6,092 bases of DNA from a virus, in IMG/VR virus record IMGVR_UViG_3300020041_000032, positions 1-6,092 of that record; one strand, written 5' to 3'. Position numbers and translations under genes: made by a program. Below, piece after piece: positions 1 to 6,092 of the stretch (positions are counted from its first letter, which is position 1; every line of letters begins with the position of its first letter). Under the pieces are notes generated by a model. The model saw only the letters and a program-made list of their open reading frames with translations. It was not told the origin of the DNA and made no database searches.

Positions 1-109
1 CGGTATATCCCAAACGAAGTGGAGCCATGGAGGCCGAAGACGCGCAGCGTCCCAGCCGTTAAGGCTGTCGGCCGGCGAAACGTAGTAGTTTTCGCGCTCG
101 AAAGTACCG
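1..109. repeat. Terminal direct repeat, copy 1; assembly overlap of a circular genome (unit length 5983 nt)
   Basis: 1..109 (cggtatatcccaaacgaagtgg...ctcgaaagtaccg) matches 5984..6092 base for base, and the match runs to the last base of the window. This is the expected signature of a circular contig written linearly. Confidence 0.95.
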
Positions 110-122
110 TCTTTCGAAGCGC
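39..122 (+). other. Cluster of four adjacent GC-rich stem-loops in the large noncoding region; function unassigned
   Basis: Hand-paired. 39-43/47-51 is gacgc/gcgtc (5 bp, loop gca). 53-57/63-67 is cagcc/ggctg (5 bp, loop gttaa). 76-81/88-94 is cgaaac/gttttcg (6 bp, one bulge). 94-104/111-122 is gcgctcgaaag/ctttcgaagcgc (11 bp, one bulged A117, loop taccgt). Overlapping palindromes cggccg and gccggc lie at 69..76. Confidence 0.7.
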
Positions 123-141
123 AGAGTAATATTTTTAAATT

Positions 142-342
142 ATGGATAATTTCGATTTTAGGCCTAGGTTTTCTCCTGTTGTTGATAGCGTTTCTTATTG
201 CTATTCCGTTGGCGCATACAGAGGTAAAAAGCGAGTTGTTGTTGCTTGGTTTGCCGACGAAGGTTCTGCGAGAGATTATCTCGTTCGCTGTTGTCTTGAT
301 TATCCTAGTATTAAATTTGATTGTCTTCGAAGTATTTTCTAA
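142..342 (+). CDS. Hypothetical small protein (66 aa, 5 Cys), immediately upstream of Rep
   Basis: ATG at 142. Third codon positions are strongly T-rich, as in the recognisable genes. The TAA stop (340..342) overlaps the Rep ATG (342..344) as TAATG. I recognise no motif. Confidence 0.55.
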   Translation: MDNFDFRPRFSPVVDSVSYCYSVGAYRGKKRVVVAWFADEGSARDYLVRCCLDYPSIKFDCLRSIF

Positions 343-1412
343 TGCCTTGTTTATCTCCCATATGGATACGTAATCGGCGCTATTTCGACAAGAAGTACCC
401 TTGTCGTAATGGTTCTGACGTCGCCAAGTCGGCTTTAGCTCTTCGTCCTTGGGATGTCGCCCGCCAGTGGCTGATGGTTCCTTGTGGAAGGTGTGAAGAC
501 TGCTTGCGTCGTCAGCGTAATGATTGGTTTGTTCGCCTTGAGCGCGAACTTGCTCGCTGTAAGGCCGATTCTCGGCAGGCTATTTTTATTACGATAACAA
601 TATCACCGAAGTACTACGATGAAGCATTGCTAGATCCTTCTAAGTTTATCCGACGATGGAATGAGCGTATTCGCCATAAGATCGGTCACTCCTTTAAACA
701 TGTGTTTTTTCAGGAGTTTGGCACCCACCCAGAAACAGGACCGGCTCCACGTCTTCACTTCCATGGTTTTCTCTTTGGAACCGATTGTATGTACAATGAC
801 ATTCGATCAGCTGTTCGTGACCTTGGTTTCGTGTGGTTGGCGAAAGCAACCCACAAGCGTGCCCGTTACTGCGTTAAGTATGTTACTAAACAAATTCAGT
901 TTAACCCCGAGGAAATCTCGGATAAATTCGTTACTTTAAATGGAAAAATTACACCTTTGGCTAATCTCCTCCAACATCACCGCTATACGCGAAAATTCGT
1001 ATCTGCTGGCGTTGGTGATTTTCTTGGTTATATGCCTCGCCCTTCTGCTCGTGTTTCGTCGTGGTCTTATTTCGATTTTGAGAAGCGCATCAATTATAAT
1101 TACTCGATTCCTCGATACTATCTTAGATATCTTAAACAGGAGGACGAGGTTTCGCGTTCGATTGCCGCTGCTGATGCTTATGCACGTTTCAGCAAGTCTC
1201 CTCTGGTTAAGCGTATTGTGTCTCTGTGTGTTGAGCGGTTCGGTCTCAATTCCTCCGTATCCCGTAGAGAGACGTATACGTGGGAGCAAAAGCAAATGAT
1301 GCGTTTTTCTGCTTCCTCTCGCAAGATGCCTGATTTTGAACCTCCTGCCTGGTTGGATTTGGACATTCTTCAGTTTTGGAGAGATCATTATAAACTTCAA
1401 CTAATTATTTAA
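342..1412 (+). CDS. VP4: Rolling-circle replication initiation protein (Microviridae VP4 / gpA-like HUH endonuclease)
   Basis: The ORF-track start at 321 is a TTG; the first ATG is 342, giving MPCLSPIWIRNRRY. Motifs present: CGRCEDCLRRQRNDWFVR Cys cluster, motif 1 FITITISP, HUH motif LHFHGFLF (HFH at 756..764), and two-tyrosine motif YCVKYVTK (Tyr codons at 867..869 and 879..881). Stop TAA at 1410..1412. Confidence 0.93.
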   Translation: MPCLSPIWIRNRRYFDKKYPCRNGSDVAKSALALRPWDVARQWLMVPCGRCEDCLRRQRNDWFVRLERELARCKADSRQAIFITITISPKYYDEALLDPSKFIRRWNERIRHKIGHSFKHVFFQEFGTHPETGPAPRLHFHGFLFGTDCMYNDIRSAVRDLGFVWLAKATHKRARYCVKYVTKQIQFNPEEISDKFVTLNGKITPLANLLQHHRYTRKFVSAGVGDFLGYMPRPSARVSSWSYFDFEKRINYNYSIPRYYLRYLKQEDEVSRSIAAADAYARFSKSPLVKRIVSLCVERFGLNSSVSRRETYTWEQKQMMRFSASSRKMPDFEPPAWLDLDILQFWRDHYKLQLII

Positions 1413-1415
1413 TTT

Positions 1416-3239
1416 ATGGGAAAACAACCTTTTATTTCTCACGTTGTAAATGGTTACTCTCGCTACGATGTTCCTGAGAGTAAGGCTTTTACATGCACAC
1501 CGGGTATTTTGTATCCGGTGCGAATCGATTTTATTAATTCCCGTGACCGCGTTTCTATTGAGCAGGGTATTGACGTTCGTAGTAACCCGCTTGCCGTCCC
1601 GACGTTCAATCCCTACACTATTCGTTTGCATCGTTTTTGGGTGCCGCTTCAGTTGTATCACCCGGAGTTGCGGACAAACAGTAGTAAGTTCGATATGAAC
1701 GACCTCTCCTTGAATTGGATTAATGCGGTTCCAGGAATTCCTTCGTCCGGCGCGACGCCTTCGGTTACTTCAACTTTTTCTAATTCGCTTATGTATTGGT
1801 TGCGCGTGTCTAACCGCGTCGTTAATTTCAGTACGCCCGCTTCAACTTCCGGCATTGTCCTTCCCTCGGGTATTGTTGGAGGTGTTTGGGCTAATGCTGA
1901 TACGTATCTCGCCTATTGGGATATCGTCCGAAATTACTATGGTTATTCGCAGTGGGGACTCTACTCCTTTGCTTGGCCCGCCTCTTGGTATTACACCGTA
2001 ACAGGTCGCTCTACTGCCTCTAACGGCACCTATGTGTTTAATTCGAATTCTTCGGATGCTTTTTTCACCCAACGTTATGGTAATCTTGAATTCCTTGACG
2101 CCTATTTTGAGAGTCAATTTTATCCTGCCGCTGTAGCGTCTTCCAATAATACCTATTGTCGTTCTGCTTTGCTTCGACAGATTATCGCCTCCGATATTGC
2201 ATCTTCCGGTGCTGCCGCCGGTGCTGTCGGTGACGGTTATCCGGTTGCGGCTCAACCGACCTCGCTTCAGATTTGGGGTAGTTCGGCTCCCGTCGGCCAG
2301 TTTAGTTCGCTTGACGATACAAAGGGCCTCGCCGAGCCTATTGTTTTTAATCTTGCCCATCCTATGGCTGTCGTCCCGTCCAATCCTGACCGATTTAGTC
2401 GGCTTCTTCCTATTGGTAGTAGCTCCGCCGTTTCGATGACTGGCGTTCAAACTATTCCTCAGTTGGCTATCGCTTCCCGTCTTCAGGAATACAAGGATTT
2501 GCTTGGCGCCGGTGGCAACCGTTATAGTGATTGGTTGGAGACGTTTTTTGCTTCGAAGATTGAACACGTCGACCGTCCGAAGCTCTTGTTTAGCGCTTCG
2601 CAGACCGTTAATGTTCAAGTGGTTATGAACCAGTCCGGATTCAACAATTTTGGAGGTGATTCGTCCGTAGGTCCGCTCGGTCAGCAAGGCGGTGCTATTG
2701 CCTTTAACGACCGCCTCGGTCGTCGTCAGTCTTATTACTTCCGCGAGCCTGGCTATATGATCGATATGTTGAGTATTCGGCCTGTTTATTTCTGGTCGCA
2801 GATTAAGCCCGACTATTTGAATTATCGAGGTTCGGATTATTTCAATCCGATTTACAACGATATAGGTTATCAGAGCGTACCTAATTGGCGTTTTGGCAAT
2901 CTTGTCGGTGGCGTCGTTGAATCTACTTTTTCGCAAGAGCCTTGCTTTAATGAGTTTCGAGCCTCTTATGATGAAGTTTTAGGGCAAATCTCTAGCACCG
3001 CAGGAAATGTCTCCGGTCGCCCTCTTTATGCTTACTGGGTGCAGCAACGTCAATTAAATTGGAGTTCCTATTGGCCGTCAAAGGCTGATTATGCGCCCGC
3101 CCTTTTTGTCGATTTGTCGCAGGTTAATTCTCCTTTCTTTTCGGATGTAGAAGATAATTTCTTTGTGAATATGTCTTATGCTGTCCAGAAGAAGAATCTC
3201 CTCAACAAAACTTTTGCAACCCGTTTGTCTAATCGTTAA
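1416..3239 (+). CDS. VP1: Major capsid protein (Microviridae F / VP1 family), 607 aa
   Basis: It is the largest ORF. The N-terminal region (SRYDVPESKAFTCTPGILYPVRIDF...TIRLHRFWVPLQLY) has the layout of microvirus F/VP1 proteins: an SRS-FD-like segment, G-x-L-x-P, then an FxVPxRL-like segment. Position after Rep and size fit. ATG is 3 nt after the Rep stop. Confidence 0.93.
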   Translation: MGKQPFISHVVNGYSRYDVPESKAFTCTPGILYPVRIDFINSRDRVSIEQGIDVRSNPLAVPTFNPYTIRLHRFWVPLQLYHPELRTNSSKFDMNDLSLNWINAVPGIPSSGATPSVTSTFSNSLMYWLRVSNRVVNFSTPASTSGIVLPSGIVGGVWANADTYLAYWDIVRNYYGYSQWGLYSFAWPASWYYTVTGRSTASNGTYVFNSNSSDAFFTQRYGNLEFLDAYFESQFYPAAVASSNNTYCRSALLRQIIASDIASSGAAAGAVGDGYPVAAQPTSLQIWGSSAPVGQFSSLDDTKGLAEPIVFNLAHPMAVVPSNPDRFSRLLPIGSSSAVSMTGVQTIPQLAIASRLQEYKDLLGAGGNRYSDWLETFFASKIEHVDRPKLLFSASQTVNVQVVMNQSGFNNFGGDSSVGPLGQQGGAIAFNDRLGRRQSYYFREPGYMIDMLSIRPVYFWSQIKPDYLNYRGSDYFNPIYNDIGYQSVPNWRFGNLVGGVVESTFSQEPCFNEFRASYDEVLGQISSTAGNVSGRPLYAYWVQQRQLNWSSYWPSKADYAPALFVDLSQVNSPFFSDVEDNFFVNMSYAVQKKNLLNKTFATRLSNR

Positions 3240-3250
3240 TATTACATTTT

Positions 3251-3547
3251 ATGGCACTAGATTGGATGATTGAAGACCGTGAAGGTTATGTTTCCCGCGG
3301 ACAGCGTATTCTTTCTGTTCTCGATGGCTCTGGCTCTGTCGATGTTCTCCCTGGTCGTCCGGATGTCGAGGCCTCCTCGTCTGATTTCGACAAGGGTGAA
3401 AGGTTTAACCCTGAAATCGATTTTGACCCTAATTCGTTTTCTCGTATGGATAAGTTTGATGGTCTCGAAGTTGGTCAGGAACTTATTGACTCTCAGCTCG
3501 ATAATCTTAAGCCTAGTCCGCCGTCTCCTAATCCTGAAGAAAAATAG
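3251..3547 (+). CDS. Hypothetical acidic protein (98 aa, D/E-rich, C-terminal PSPPSPNPEEK); possible scaffolding-type protein
   Basis: ATG at 3251, 11 nt after the capsid stop. T/C-rich third positions mark this as the primary frame here. The composition is strongly acidic. I recognise no conserved motif, so the scaffold role is inferred only from acidity and position next to the capsid gene. Confidence 0.6.
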   Translation: MALDWMIEDREGYVSRGQRILSVLDGSGSVDVLPGRPDVEASSSDFDKGERFNPEIDFDPNSFSRMDKFDGLEVGQELIDSQLDNLKPSPPSPNPEEK

Positions 3548-3569
3548 TATATCCTTTACTTGACGATAT

Positions 3570-3872
3570 ATGCTACGTGCGCGGACCCCTTCTGCGAGAG
3601 TTCGTGAATCGCTGAAGGTTATTGGTAACGACTGCAGGAGAGGCCGCGCATTTTTCTATCGTTCTTTAAATTTTACTATCATGTCTGATACTAAACTACC
3701 CTTTTACAAATCTAAAGCCTTTTGGACGCTCGTCTCGTCCATTGTCGCTGCTTTGGCTGCCTTTTTCTTGTCCTCGTGTTCCGCACAGGCAAAGGTTGCT
3801 CGAACAGGTGTTCATATTGATACTGTTCGCGTAGACTACATTATTCGCTCGAACAATTTTTCGATTCCGTAA
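3570..3872 (+). CDS. Small membrane-targeted protein, putative lipoprotein (100 aa from ATG 3570; 63 aa from ATG 3681)
   Basis: From ATG 3681 the product is MSDTKLPFYKSK-AFWTLVSSIVAALAAFFL-SSC-SAQAK. That is a Lys-containing n-region, a hydrophobic h-region and a lipobox L-S-S-C (Cys codon 3777..3779), leaving a 31-aa mature peptide. The upstream 37 codons (3570..3680) are Arg-rich and coincide with a long hairpin plus T5 run, so the shorter form may be the real one. The stop at 3870..3872 is 1 nt before the VP2 ATG. Confidence 0.6.
   Translation: MLRARTPSARVRESLKVIGNDCRRGRAFFYRSLNFTIMSDTKLPFYKSKAFWTLVSSIVAALAAFFLSSCSAQAKVARTGVHIDTVRVDYIIRSNNFSIP
3578..3655 (+). promoter_or_regulatory. Long imperfect hairpin followed by TTTTT; candidate terminator/attenuator or ssDNA structural element
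   Basis: Hand-paired 3578-3595 with 3634-3650: 15 Watson-Crick pairs, 1 G-T wobble, 1 mismatch (3588/3641) and 1 bulge (A3585). The 38-nt interior can form further short stems. T5 lies at 3651..3655. Confidence 0.45.
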
Positions 3873-3873
3873 T

Positions 3874-5154
3874 ATGAGACTCATTGATTTCAAGTCCTAC
3901 GTCGAGCCTGTTTCTACAGGTGCTATGCTTGGCGCTGCTGGCATTTCCGCTGGTGGTCAGGTCGCCTCTGGCCTATTCAAGCCCTCGCTCAAGAGGCAAT
4001 GGAAATATCAGCAGAAGCAAATGAAGCTTCAACAGCAGTACGCTTTGGAGCAGATGCAAAAACAAGGTGAAATCAACTATGCTAACTGGCAGAAACAGTT
4101 TGATTATGAGAATGCTTACAATGACCCCACGAAGGTTTTCGATCGTTACTTGAAGGCCGGCATTACCCCTGCTGCCGTCTTAGGTTCTTCAGGCGTTGGC
4201 GTCAATGCTACTATGTCTGGCGGTTCTTCGGGCTCCGTTGGTGCTTCCGGCCCTTCAGGCGGCTCTTTTGACTTCTCCAGTCCTCTGCCTCCTGGCGCTG
4301 GTTCTGCCGCTGCAGGTGTCGCTCTCGAGGCCATGGGTGTTAATTCGACTATCGAACGCAATAAGGCTGCCGCTAATCTCGATAATGCCCAAGCTGATGA
4401 CATTCGTAACAAGATGCCCACTAGGGAACAAGGCCAGGCCCTTATCGAGCTCGAGAAGCAACTAAAGCGAGCTAACATTGGCAGTCAGTCTTCGCTCGCT
4501 CGTTATTATGGTGAGTTGGCTATCAATCAGGAGGCTTACAACAAGTATGCAGACCTCGCTGCCACCTATGATTTTCAGCGTATTCAGGCCGCTTATGCTG
4601 AACAGGTTGAGCGCACTAAGCGTATTCGTGCTGAAAACGATGCTGAGATTCCTCTTCTCGAACAGTCTGCTGCCGCCAACCTTGCTTATCTTTGCGCTGT
4701 CGCCGATGCTGCTAAAGCTTCCGCACGTGAGTCCCGTTCTCATGCTGATATTCTTGACATTCAGCAGAAGGATATGCAACGCATGTTTGAGGTCACTTGG
4801 GAAACTCCTGTAAAGGTTCCCCTGATCAACGAGAAGGGTGAACCCTCTGGAGAATTTGAGGAGATTACAGGTCGCGAATATTATTCTTATCTTCGTGGCC
4901 TTGAGCTTGGTGAAGGTCGCCAGAGCCTGTCCGGTAACTGGTTTTCCATTCGCAAGAACAAGAACGCTCTGTTTTATGATGTTACAAAGGCTTTTGCTAC
5001 TGCCGCAGGCATCGCCGGTGCTTCCTACGTTGGTCGCAAGGCCGCAGGCCCTGCCGGTCCCGAAGGCTATGAGGAAGTGAGGGAGATTTACGGCCCATCG
5101 GGAACCCCGACTGCTAGCACCTATACTCGTCGTAACTATCATGAGAGAAATTGA
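3874..5154 (+). CDS. VP2: Minor capsid / DNA pilot protein (Microviridae VP2, gpH-like), 426 aa
   Basis: It is the second-largest structural-size ORF, downstream of the capsid gene as in VP1-VP2 gene orders. It has a Gly/Ala-rich N-terminus (GAMLGAAGISAGGQVASG), a Q/K-rich segment and a Gly/Ser-rich tract (about 4180..4325). A long Ala/Gln/Glu-rich helical region follows, consistent with H/VP2-type pilot proteins. The call rests on architecture and synteny, not on a recognised motif. Confidence 0.65.
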   Translation: MRLIDFKSYVEPVSTGAMLGAAGISAGGQVASGLFKPSLKRQWKYQQKQMKLQQQYALEQMQKQGEINYANWQKQFDYENAYNDPTKVFDRYLKAGITPAAVLGSSGVGVNATMSGGSSGSVGASGPSGGSFDFSSPLPPGAGSAAAGVALEAMGVNSTIERNKAAANLDNAQADDIRNKMPTREQGQALIELEKQLKRANIGSQSSLARYYGELAINQEAYNKYADLAATYDFQRIQAAYAEQVERTKRIRAENDAEIPLLEQSAAANLAYLCAVADAAKASARESRSHADILDIQQKDMQRMFEVTWETPVKVPLINEKGEPSGEFEEITGREYYSYLRGLELGEGRQSLSGNWFSIRKNKNALFYDVTKAFATAAGIAGASYVGRKAAGPAGPEGYEEVREIYGPSGTPTASTYTRRNYHERN

Positions 5155-5159
5155 ACATC

Positions 5160-5208
5160 TTTTTCGACTTTTTAAACTTTACGGATTGTTTGTTTTTGCT
5201 TATTTTTG
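5160..5208 (+). promoter_or_regulatory. AT-rich spacer with phased T-tracts and a TAnnTTTG motif; candidate internal promoter
   Basis: This is the only AT-rich intergenic spacer (5155..5234). T-tracts lie at 5160-5164, 5169-5173, 5178-5180, 5189-5191, 5193-5197 and 5203-5207, spaced about 9-11 nt. TATTTTTG at 5201..5208 fits the Bacteroidota -7 consensus TAnnTTTG, 27 nt before ATG 5235. Such matches are expected a few times by chance in this T-rich genome. Confidence 0.3.
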
Positions 5209-5234
5209 CATCGTAAACCAATAACCTCTTTATT

Positions 5235-5555
5235 ATGAAAAAGACTAGAGTTTCAACTATTTCTCAGTTGTCAACTGACGCTGTGGAATACTTGTTCTTT
5301 GAGTGGCTTCGCCGTCGAGGTGTATTTTCTGCTTTTAGATCAAACTGCGGGTTTGATAAGAGCCGCAATAACTCATTTCGAACTGTGCTTCGTAATCGAA
5401 TTCAATGTGTATTGCATTCGCCTTATGCAGGCATAGGCGATCTTATTTCTACGAGTTTCATATTCGCTCACACACCCGAAGGCCTTGCCTTTTGGTTTGA
5501 TTTGTCCTTCGCTTGGCGTCGTTTTTGTGCTGACTTTCAAAATAATTTTAAATAA
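5235..5555 (+). CDS. Hypothetical protein (106 aa, basic, Phe/Trp-rich)
   Basis: ATG at 5235 after the 80-nt AT-rich spacer. It is the longest ORF in this segment that starts outside another + strand gene. Third positions look less T-biased than in neighbouring genes. No recognisable motif. Confidence 0.55.
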   Translation: MKKTRVSTISQLSTDAVEYLFFEWLRRRGVFSAFRSNCGFDKSRNNSFRTVLRNRIQCVLHSPYAGIGDLISTSFIFAHTPEGLAFWFDLSFAWRRFCADFQNNFK

Positions 5556-5562
5556 TATCGTT

Positions 5563-5886
5563 ATGTCGCATATTCATGTTGTTATTCGTCGTATTAACCC
5601 TGCTATAAAGGTCGATCTTGTCCAGGTAGGCTGTCTTGAAGATGGCCAGTTTAAGACACTTCCTCTTGACACTCTTAAGGTTGCTCCTTTTTCGAAGTAT
5701 GTAGAGTGTTCCAGCGTTTCTGATTCGCCCTACATCGAGCATCATTCTGTTTCGGGTCTGATCGCATCTCTTATCTCGTATCCGAATTTTGCGATCGAGT
5801 TTTTCGATAATACTCTCGTTCTTATGTTTGACTTTGATTTGCCTGATGATGAAAGCTCGTCGGAAGAAGAAGGGAAAGGGCACTAA
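5563..5886 (+). CDS. Hypothetical protein (107 aa) with acidic C-terminal tail (DDESSSEEEGKGH)
   Basis: The ORF-track start at 5485 is a TTG inside the previous gene. The first ATG is 5563, 7 nt after the upstream TAA (5553..5555). Third positions are T-rich. A terminator-like hairpin follows downstream. Confidence 0.6.
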   Translation: MSHIHVVIRRINPAIKVDLVQVGCLEDGQFKTLPLDTLKVAPFSKYVECSSVSDSPYIEHHSVSGLIASLISYPNFAIEFFDNTLVLMFDFDLPDDESSSEEEGKGH

Positions 5887-5931
5887 AGTAGTGACCCGTC
5901 CGCTCGGTGGAAGAGTCCTTTGACTCACTAG

Positions 5932-5966
5932 GCCCCAGGAGATATCCCCTTCTCCTGTGGGCTTTT
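5932..5966 (+). terminator. GC-rich stem-loop followed by TTTT; intrinsic-terminator-like, or a stem-loop displaying ATATCC in its loop
   Basis: Hand-paired 5932-5941 (gccccaggag) with 5952-5962 (ctcctgtgggc): 10 bp with one bulged T5958, plus an optional A5942-T5951 pair. The loop contains atatcccc. TTTT at 5963..5966. It lies 46 nt after the last CDS stop. Confidence 0.55.
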
Positions 5967-5972
5967 GTATTC

Positions 5973-5987
5973 ACCGGCTTTGCCGGT
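5973..5987 (+). other. Perfect 6-bp hairpin (accggc ttt gccggt) spanning the linearisation junction
   Basis: accggc (5973..5978) is the reverse complement of gccggt (5982..5987), with loop ttt. GTATATCC follows at 5986..5993. Confidence 0.6.
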
Positions 5988-6092
5988 ATATCCCAAACGA
6001 AGTGGAGCCATGGAGGCCGAAGACGCGCAGCGTCCCAGCCGTTAAGGCTGTCGGCCGGCGAAACGTAGTAGTTTTCGCGCTCGAAAGTACCG
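5984..6092. repeat. Terminal direct repeat, copy 2 (identical to 1..109)
   Basis: See copy 1. The 109-nt identity ends at the window end. Confidence 0.95.

Follow-up and report, generated by a model that had tools for sequence, protein, structure and literature searches.

Colicin lysis proteins are synthesized as 47-amino-acid (aa) precursors, in which a 19-aa signal peptide is followed by a mature lipopeptide of ~28 aa that is lipid-modified and Lol-sorted (PMC2896534). Their over-expression is lethal, they activate outer-membrane phospholipase A, and the immunity and lysis genes of the ColE7 operon are separated by a terminator (PMC2896534); titles cited in the same article report that the signal peptide is itself lethal to the host. 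In microviruses outside the phiX174-like phages, some lineages have M15 peptidases and lysis is otherwise unassigned (PMC3394797, PMC9239249), so that an earlier note on the DNA studied here was right, with this exception, to start from the premise that such functions are unassigned. That note concerned a 6,092-nucleotide (nt) stretch of viral DNA (IMG/VR record IMGVR_UViG_3300020041_000032, positions 1 to 6,092; hereafter the window), and it singled out a 63-codon gene as a candidate lysis or superinfection-exclusion factor of lipoprotein type. Judged from sequence comparison, this open reading frame (ORF), at 3681-3872, is demonstrably a conserved, translated, microvirus-specific gene of prolipoprotein type. 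We tentatively favour the view that its product may be a lysis or egress effector, working like the colicin lysis lipoproteins without being their homologue.

The reality of the gene is settled by its conservation and not by its lipobox pattern. The comparison set comprised 83 genomes (the window, 2 relatives from GenBank and 80 loci found through the similarity of their capsids), the related genomes coming mostly from a few gut metagenomes. Searches with tblastn recovered a homologue in 81 of them, the two misses being contigs broken at that spot, and the gene is syntenic in each intact relative examined. The gene also stands directly 5' of that for the pilot protein VP2 in each of six additional relatives from GenBank; it is unannotated in four of these and hidden by a mis-framed VP2 feature in one. 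Syntenic lipobox ORFs between capsid and VP2, which the earlier note had suggested looking for in relatives, proved abundant. At the level of individual records, the gene is unannotated in MG945784 (L001), MK765655 (L144), MT135342 (L146) and MG945272 (L148), and in MG945498 (L147) a 'similar to VP2' feature, which uses another frame, lies over it.

Nucleotide diversity at codon positions 1, 2 and 3 of the gene is 0.12, 0.07 and 0.47, respectively, and its ratio of non-synonymous to synonymous substitution (dN/dS) is 0.066-0.071, the smallest among eight genes. Measured against the window, dN/dS is 0.066 for the lipoprotein gene, 0.119 for Rep, 0.134 for an acidic ORF downstream of the capsid gene, 0.135 for the capsid gene and 0.288 for the pilot gene; synonymous sites are near saturation (pS 0.63), so these ratios are rough, and their ranking matches that of plain identities, with amino-acid identities to the window of 87% for the lipoprotein (the highest of the eight genes), 74% for the capsid and 58% for the pilot. 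Within the gene, the mature core (residues 43-59) has a dN/dS of 0.013, and the hydrophobic h-region together with the lipobox (codons 13-33) one of 0.058. As far as sequence evolution can speak, the 63-aa ORF belongs to the true core genes of a large Bacteroidales-associated gut microvirus clade.

The encoded protein has the layout of a prolipoprotein, and each number that the earlier note gave for it is correct: the n-region contains lysines (K5, K10 and K12), the hydrophobic core spans 18 residues (A13-L30), the lipobox is L30-S31-S32-C33, and the mature part beginning at Cys33 has 31 aa. We applied the PROSITE PS51257 rules in our own coding, as the core pattern (lipobox [LVI][ASTVI][GAS]C closing an uncharged hydrophobic stretch), a Cys at residue 15-35 and K/R within the first 7. 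In all six frames, 3681-3872 is the window's sole Met-started ORF of at least 40 aa that passes, the rules being satisfied by AALAAF-FL-S-S-C33, by the position of Cys33 and by K5. Mononucleotide shuffles of the window yield a mean of 0.15 passing ORFs, with at least one in 14% of shuffles; the lipobox pattern alone is therefore only mildly improbable and constitutes weak evidence. The signal peptide is rich in small-xxx-small residue motifs, and AlphaFold2, given a 25-sequence alignment, models a confident helix for the signal peptide only. A helical-face analysis of the variable positions was unconvincing and was dropped.

In the window, mature positions +2 to +6 read S-A-Q-A-K, and no acidic residue follows the Cys. 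The surface-export signal of Bacteroidota lipoproteins consists of CS(D/E)2, K-(D/E)2 or Q-A-(D/E)2 after the Cys (PMC6222051). This acidic signal is absent from the 63-aa protein, positions +2 to +6 being free of D/E in 262 of 267 collected homologous modules, so the lipopeptide should face the periplasm. From these features, we infer that the protein is inserted by Sec, lipidated at Cys33 and cleaved after S32 to leave a 31-aa lipopeptide facing the periplasm. Between the stop codon and the VP2 start there is 1 nt in 69 of 81 genomes and 2 nt in 4; the lipoprotein gene and VP2 are likely to be translationally coupled.

Homologues were collected by a word-indexed search, which gave 391 clusters at 90% identity, and by a profile search of 1.84 billion representatives, which gave 64 clusters at 50% identity; the module set analysed contains 267 unique sequences. 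All contexts are microviral, and neither cellular homologues nor contexts in lysis cassettes of double-stranded DNA phages were found. The ten contigs looked up were all microviral and 6 kb or less, and the family's only genome match is an Alistipes prophage, Alistipes montrealensis carrying an integrated relative with the same protein module. One GenBank protein from a metagenome-assembled genome has already been named automatically 'lipoprotein [Microviridae sp.]'. Three arrangements occur: a short form directly 5' of VP2, as in the window and the majority of its relatives, another short form that lies 5' of Rep at a distance of a few hundred nt, and a long form of 172-223 aa directly 5' of Rep, seen in about 30 clusters (P0123-P0165).

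The signal-peptidase-II-type architecture claimed in the earlier note is borne out by 255-262 of the 267 unique homologues, in which [SAGT]-Cys, the spacing and the core pattern of PS51257 are kept: the distance from K-x-F-W to Cys is exactly 22 residues in 262, and the core pattern is retained in 255. In all collected modules the n-region is basic and the Cys at the helix end is preceded by a small residue, and F, W, A, F and C are invariant at fixed spacing in the hydrophobic segment. Among 48 cluster representatives, identity reaches 71% in the signal-peptide core and 32% over the 27 residues after the Cys, and several unrelated mature types of ~30 aa sit on one shared signal peptide. Type A has the motif G-[VIL]-H-x-D-T-V-R-V-D-Y-I-I-R-S and types B and C have H-[YR]-V-x-Q...T-I-T-Y-E-Q/D, with further types in existence. 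A signal peptide that is far more conserved than the mature part is unusual for a lipoprotein, and so is such an assortment of mature types. In L038, L040, L042, L047, L048, L134, L145 and similar loci, the gene before VP2 encodes the common signal peptide followed by an unrelated mature peptide, CTARHYVVQSASSVKSGDTTRTTITYEQIGNFKRP; the lipobox in these seven is L-E-S-C, whose Glu at -2 lies outside the canonical pattern.

Profile comparisons gave weak matches to phrog_14165 (E about 0.01-0.02) and to the PADLOC candidate defence family PDC-M02A, the latter for residues 27-61 (E 0.0097) and, in the same model region, for the long form P0127 (E 0.0028); the similarity to PDC-M02A may be a chance likeness of lipoprotein N-termini. 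Our literature search found no paper on this protein, on microvirus lipobox proteins or on Microviridae lipoproteins in lysis. Taken together, the protein would be a small envelope lipoprotein of the kind known from phages and plasmids, present here in single-stranded DNA (ssDNA) microviruses and furnished with modular mature peptides and a signal peptide of unusual conservation.

In the reading that we tentatively favour, the basic n-region and the 18-residue helix would put the precursor into the inner membrane, a diacylglyceryl group would be added to Cys33, and signal peptidase II would cleave between S32 and C33. The 31-aa lipopeptide, lacking an acidic export signal, would be kept on the periplasmic side, in the inner membrane's outer leaflet or the outer membrane's inner leaflet. 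Late in infection, the lipopeptide and the freed signal peptide could destabilise the envelope and allow virions to escape, while low, late expression would be ensured by the structured element upstream of the gene and by the gene's coupling to VP2 across 1 nt. A role in lysis or egress is favoured by the size class, the constrained signal peptide, the lack of a detectable muralytic enzyme, the mutual exclusivity with M15 peptidases and the layout of the long forms. PHROG and Pfam scans matched no window gene to a muralytic enzyme family, and no window ORF to endolysin, holin or spanin families. M15 peptidases occur in none of 147 module-bearing loci, and the M15-carrying microviruses examined, namely phiHBP1 (L150, PV598014) and the bajarodmic viruses 1011, 66, 1107 and 1152 (L151-L154), are without the module; phiHBP1 is a cultured microvirus of Bacteroides fragilis (PMC13064476). 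VP2 directly follows the gene for the major capsid protein VP1 in L150-L154, and some M15-carrying microviruses have tiny hydrophobic ORFs instead, such as MVYILVLVLVVIKLIIILCFRKKK... at 3245-3367 of L152.

Several points weigh against this reading. Known single-gene lysis proteins are fast-evolving, unlike the lipoprotein gene, which is the slowest-evolving in its genome, and for lysis and exclusion genes alike it is unusual to be universally present, as a core gene, and to be constrained more strongly than any other gene of the genome. The assignment to lysis gains nothing from homology: Pfam, scanned at E <= 10 with the 63-aa protein, with two of its variants and with two long forms, returned nothing, Lysis_col included, and PHROGs, NCBIfam and PDB sequences gave no significant match for the protein. 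Presence of M15 or of the module was itself the basis on which the loci compared were selected, and the two groups lie far apart phylogenetically. Lgt and LspA processing is predicted by pattern rules, and the AlphaFold2 model of the mature part (predicted local-distance difference test 48-58) was judged uninformative. A lysis role does not account for the long forms, in which the module is fused to a J-like tail, and a newly recognised second membrane-protein ORF, overprinted within Rep, is at least as good a candidate lysis gene.

In the long forms, the module is followed by a non-conserved S/T/P/L-rich linker, a short Pro-containing hydrophobic stretch of 13-17 residues and a very basic tail (...RRGGRRGK.RPK.TK.IPLGGSHL), the linker being the +1 frame of a conserved gene, X, which it overprints. 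The window has a separate 24-aa, highly basic ORF with its own ATG, and the same kind of ORF is present in 81 short-form loci; it resembles J of G4 (MKKSIRRSGGKSKGARLWYVGGTQY) and of phiX174 in length, charge and its C-terminal ...GG-x-x-hydrophobic end. By these likenesses, the 24-aa ORF is probably the clade's DNA-binding packaging protein. One alternative built on this material is that the module is a membrane tether, which anchors a phage process (ssDNA synthesis, packaging or an egress site, for example) to the inner membrane, as one polypeptide ending in a J-like DNA- and capsid-binding tail in sister lineages and split into two genes in the window lineage. The number of clusters with such module-to-tail ORFs, the free-standing tail of the same type in the window, and the fact that in both arrangements the module adjoins a virion protein associated with DNA, VP2 or J, would suit it, as would core-gene behaviour and very strong constraint, which befit a role in the replication cycle. 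A further point for it is that in several lineages the tail by itself lacks any possible start codon. The idea that the tail always has its own start did not hold up: among 19 distinct tails, a GTG is present in just 4, and in 6 no candidate start was seen within six codons upstream.

Other points tell against the tether. A Sec/lipoprotein signal places downstream sequence in the periplasm, and the tail would be cytoplasmic only if the 13-17-residue stretch acted as a stop-transfer segment, which is hypothetical. The phiX174 virion needs about 60 copies of J, a number hard to square with a membrane-anchored precursor. The long-form frame is open in all sampled lineages, the third frame having 5-8 stops; with the X protein sequence fixed, the probability of no stop is 0.15-0.56 per lineage (0.74 in L083, with 48 X codons scored), which is not very improbable, and the proposition that the long ORF must be strongly selected to stay open gains little from any one lineage. 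Since a GTG precedes the tail in four lineages, the fusion may be incidental read-through. We regard the tether as unlikely.

Superinfection exclusion or receptor masking, the other function raised in the earlier note, would have the lipopeptide bind a host protein for adsorption or DNA entry, or the incoming pilot protein, and so block later microviruses or shield progeny from debris, by analogy with T5 Llp and Cor. It would accord with a small phage lipoprotein that has no surface-export signal and whose gene adjoins, and is coupled to, the pilot gene; an integrated Alistipes prophage, where exclusion would pay, is among the relatives, and unrelated mature types on a constant signal peptide could reflect target switching. 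Exclusion genes are usually accessory and patchy, whereas no intact genome of the clade lacks this gene, the most constrained of all. The type A core stays near-invariant while the capsid and pilot, which recognise the host, drift to the identities given above, and the conservation of the signal peptide is left unexplained. Exclusion therefore seems to us quite unlikely.

More speculative still, and improbable as it stands, is a fuller version of the lysis proposal, in which a single-gene lysis protein of lipoprotein type would be seen for the first time: its near-invariant signal-anchor helix, with the Cys at its fixed distance of 22 residues from K-x-F-W, would target a conserved inner-membrane machine of Bacteroidales, the interchangeable lipopeptide of ~30 aa would tune the activity, and coupling to the J-like tail in sister lineages would link lysis to packaging. 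Candidate targets would be one of the steps by which murein precursors are made or exported, or else the Lgt/LspA/Lol pathway itself.

The helix has a central part in a further alternative, that of an uncleaved signal anchor like phiX174 E, in which it would inhibit a conserved inner-membrane enzyme and the Cys and lipobox would form an interface and not a lipidation site. The hydrophobic segment, with its residues at fixed spacing, is the family's most conserved part, sister versions are overprinted and have a basic C-terminus like E, and a few variants have a Glu at -2 (LESC, MEGC), which PS51257 disallows. However, the great majority of modules satisfy the full lipobox, the signature of an Lgt/LspA substrate, and would be unlikely to keep it otherwise. 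The orientation of E, known from the MraY-E-SlyD structure, is opposite to N-in, the orientation that the lysines imply here. We consider this alternative very doubtful.

The second candidate lysis gene is the 119-aa ORF at 940-1299, read in the +1 frame within Rep. Of 82 window-like genomes, 76 keep it open, and it is absent from most long-form lineages (24 of 27). Synonymous divergence of Rep falls from 0.62 to 0.22 exactly across the overlapped codons 207-326 and then returns to 0.53, and a dip confined to the overlap is good evidence of dual coding. No family match was found for the ORF in PHROGs, NCBIfam or PADLOC; its position resembles that of gene K of G4 and phiX174 and its architecture that of a holin or an E-like protein. 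It is probably a real membrane-protein gene. The last alternative, which we hold to be equally doubtful, is that the product of 940-1299, with its two transmembrane segments, kills as a holin or E-like protein while the lipopeptide, as a spanin-like or outer-membrane accessory, completes outer-membrane rupture: the two membrane proteins co-occur in window-like genomes, and where 940-1299 is mostly missing the extended module combines a lipoprotein signal with a hydrophobic segment and a basic tail at the C-terminus, which may match the layout of the T1 unimolecular spanin gp11 (an N-terminal lipoprotein signal and a C-terminal transmembrane segment), but spanins are required only after murein degradation, so the absence of a detectable endolysin in the window weakens it, as do a 31-aa mature peptide without the proline-rich or coiled-coil-partner features of o-spanins and the lack of an embedded or adjacent i-spanin-like gene.

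The lipoprotein gene is preceded by a conserved, structured element of non-coding DNA, in which a GC-rich closing stem, formed by GTGCGCGGAC (3577-3586) and GGCCGCGCA (3642-3650), surrounds a variable inner hairpin and is followed on its 3' side by a T-rich conserved tail, TTTTTCTATCGTTCTTTAA. Diversity in the element is ~0.09 as against 0.46 at neighbouring third positions, compensatory changes are present in 11 of 19 predicted pairs among 9 diverse relatives, and its DNA fold has an energy of -17.7 kcal/mol (z = -2.2). Rfam gave no match for the element, and scans of it for consensus promoters and terminators found nothing. It is a candidate terminator/attenuator, promoter or complementary-strand origin, and it may set the expression of the lipoprotein-VP2 pair. 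The element overlaps the 37-codon (111-nt) extension of a 100-aa form starting at ATG 3570, which the earlier note had offered as an alternative. This form is rejected: the extension has no codon periodicity (diversity 0.093/0.091/0.105), and an in-frame stop lies 2-23 codons 5' of the 3681-equivalent ATG in 25 of 68 genomes. Its Cys, at residue 70, also violates the position rule of PS51257.

The window is a complete microvirus genome with every gene on the + strand (Table 1). At the position of its acidic ORF, a VP3-like scaffold has been proposed for Alpavirinae (PMC3394797). The closest GenBank records are uncultured Microviridae from faeces of pig, civet, rodent, lemur and tortoise, at 67-78% nucleotide identity. 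No Shine-Dalgarno-like sequence was found before any window gene and the leaders are all A+T-rich, features that, on established knowledge, fit with a Bacteroidota host; we infer that the host of the window lineage belongs to the Bacteroidota/Bacteroidales.

Table 1. Positions of the features discussed, in window coordinates unless a locus is named.
Feature	Position	Strand	Remarks
Prolipoprotein gene, complete, 63 codons + TAA	3681-3872	+	ATG 3681, TAA 3870-3872; product MSDTKLPFYKSKAFWTLVSSIVAALAAFFLSSCSAQAKVARTGVHIDTVRVDYIIRSNNFSIP
Predicted signal peptide, residues 1-32	3681-3776	+	n-region MSDTKLPFYKSK; h-region AFWTLVSSIVAALAAFFL; lipobox -3 to -1 = L-S-S
Cys33 codon (TGT), predicted lipidation and cleavage site	3777-3779	+	invariant in alignment A1; fixed end of each collected module
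Predicted mature 31-aa peptide	3777-3869	+	CSAQAKVARTGVHIDTVRVDYIIRSNNFSIP; type A core motif
Junction TAA-T-ATG	3870-3876	+	lipoprotein stop 1 nt before VP2 (pilot) start
Conserved structured non-coding element	3554-3669	+	CTTTACTTGACGATATATG, then GC-rich closing stem around variable inner hairpin, then TTTTTCTATCGTTCTTTAA
Overprinted ORF, 119 aa, ATG start	940-1299	+ (+1 frame inside Rep/VP4)	two strongly hydrophobic segments, basic C-terminus
Highly basic 24-aa ORF, own ATG	5849-5923	+	MKARRKKKGKGTKVVTRPLGGRVL; overlaps 3' end of 5563-5886
Long form in a sister lineage	L083 1512-2114
Long form in a sister lineage	L084 634-1218
Long form in a sister lineage	L143 8001-8609		Alistipes montrealensis prophage
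Rep/VP4	321-1412	+	PHROG and Pfam matches
Major capsid VP1	1416-3239	+	PHROG and Pfam matches
Acidic 98-aa ORF	3251-3547	+	site of VP3-like scaffold proposed for Alpavirinae
Pilot VP2	3874-5154	+	PHROG and Pfam matches
ORF without assigned function	5235-5555	+
ORF without assigned function	5563-5886	+
ORF without assigned function	142-342	+

Gut microviruses are among the most abundant phages of mammalian guts, and a short, universal and extremely constrained membrane-protein gene, often missed by annotators, has here been pinned down in them. The lipoprotein gene and the gene overprinted in Rep provide two concrete candidate lysis genes. If the lipoprotein is lytic, its target would represent a new weak point in the envelopes of Bacteroidales; otherwise, these phages would have as their most conserved protein one whose role lies outside current models of the microvirus life cycle.

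Among known systems, T5 Llp and Cor of phi80 and N15 are likewise small, periplasm-facing phage lipoproteins that act on the host envelope. They are accessory genes of large double-stranded DNA phages and are tied to the receptor FhuA, whereas the gene described here is universal in 6-kb ssDNA phages and combines several mature types with a conserved signal peptide; Pfam, NCBIfam and PHROG scans revealed no homology to Llp or Cor. The spanins Rz1 and T1 gp11 are also phage lipoproteins acting in Gram-negative lysis, and the long-form relatives, with their hydrophobic stretch before the basic tail, may share the layout of gp11. The window protein, in contrast, ends 30 residues past the Cys, without a second hydrophobic segment or C-terminal anchor, and unlike Rz/Rz1 it has as neighbours the acidic ORF and VP2, with no endolysin, holin or i-spanin and no PHROG lysis or spanin match; in the Rz/Rz1 type, the o-spanin gene is embedded in, overlaps or adjoins that of an i-spanin, which has an N-terminal transmembrane segment and a periplasmic coiled coil, and the pair belongs to a holin-endolysin cassette. 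The analogies drawn in the earlier note to o-spanins, Llp and Cor make a poorer fit than the colicin lysis lipoproteins.

Protein E of phiX174 and G4 is also a small microvirus membrane protein whose N-terminal hydrophobic helix is conserved. It is encoded inside D before J, and the long forms similarly overprint gene X immediately 5' of the J-like tail and end in a basic C-terminus. The window gene differs in being free-standing, in its lipobox and invariant Cys, which are absent in E, and in its predicted orientation, which is opposite; no sequence similarity between the two was found.

The colicin lysis proteins, or bacteriocin release proteins (Kil, Cel), have no sequence relationship with the window protein, and they are encoded by plasmids of enterobacteria, while the present gene belongs to phages of Bacteroidales. 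The signal peptide described here is longer and far more conserved, and sister lineages have a long C-terminal extension. The two nevertheless share a size class, colicin-type precursors having about 45-52 aa, with precursor, signal peptide and mature peptide of 47, 19 and ~28 aa there and 63, 32 and 31 aa here, and both come from mobile elements that export particles or proteins from Gram-negative cells. A functional signal peptide in the colicin lysis proteins is paralleled by a functionally constrained one in the microviruses, and in ColE7 a terminator-like hairpin is situated just 5' of the lysis gene, like the structured element that precedes the lipoprotein gene of the window.

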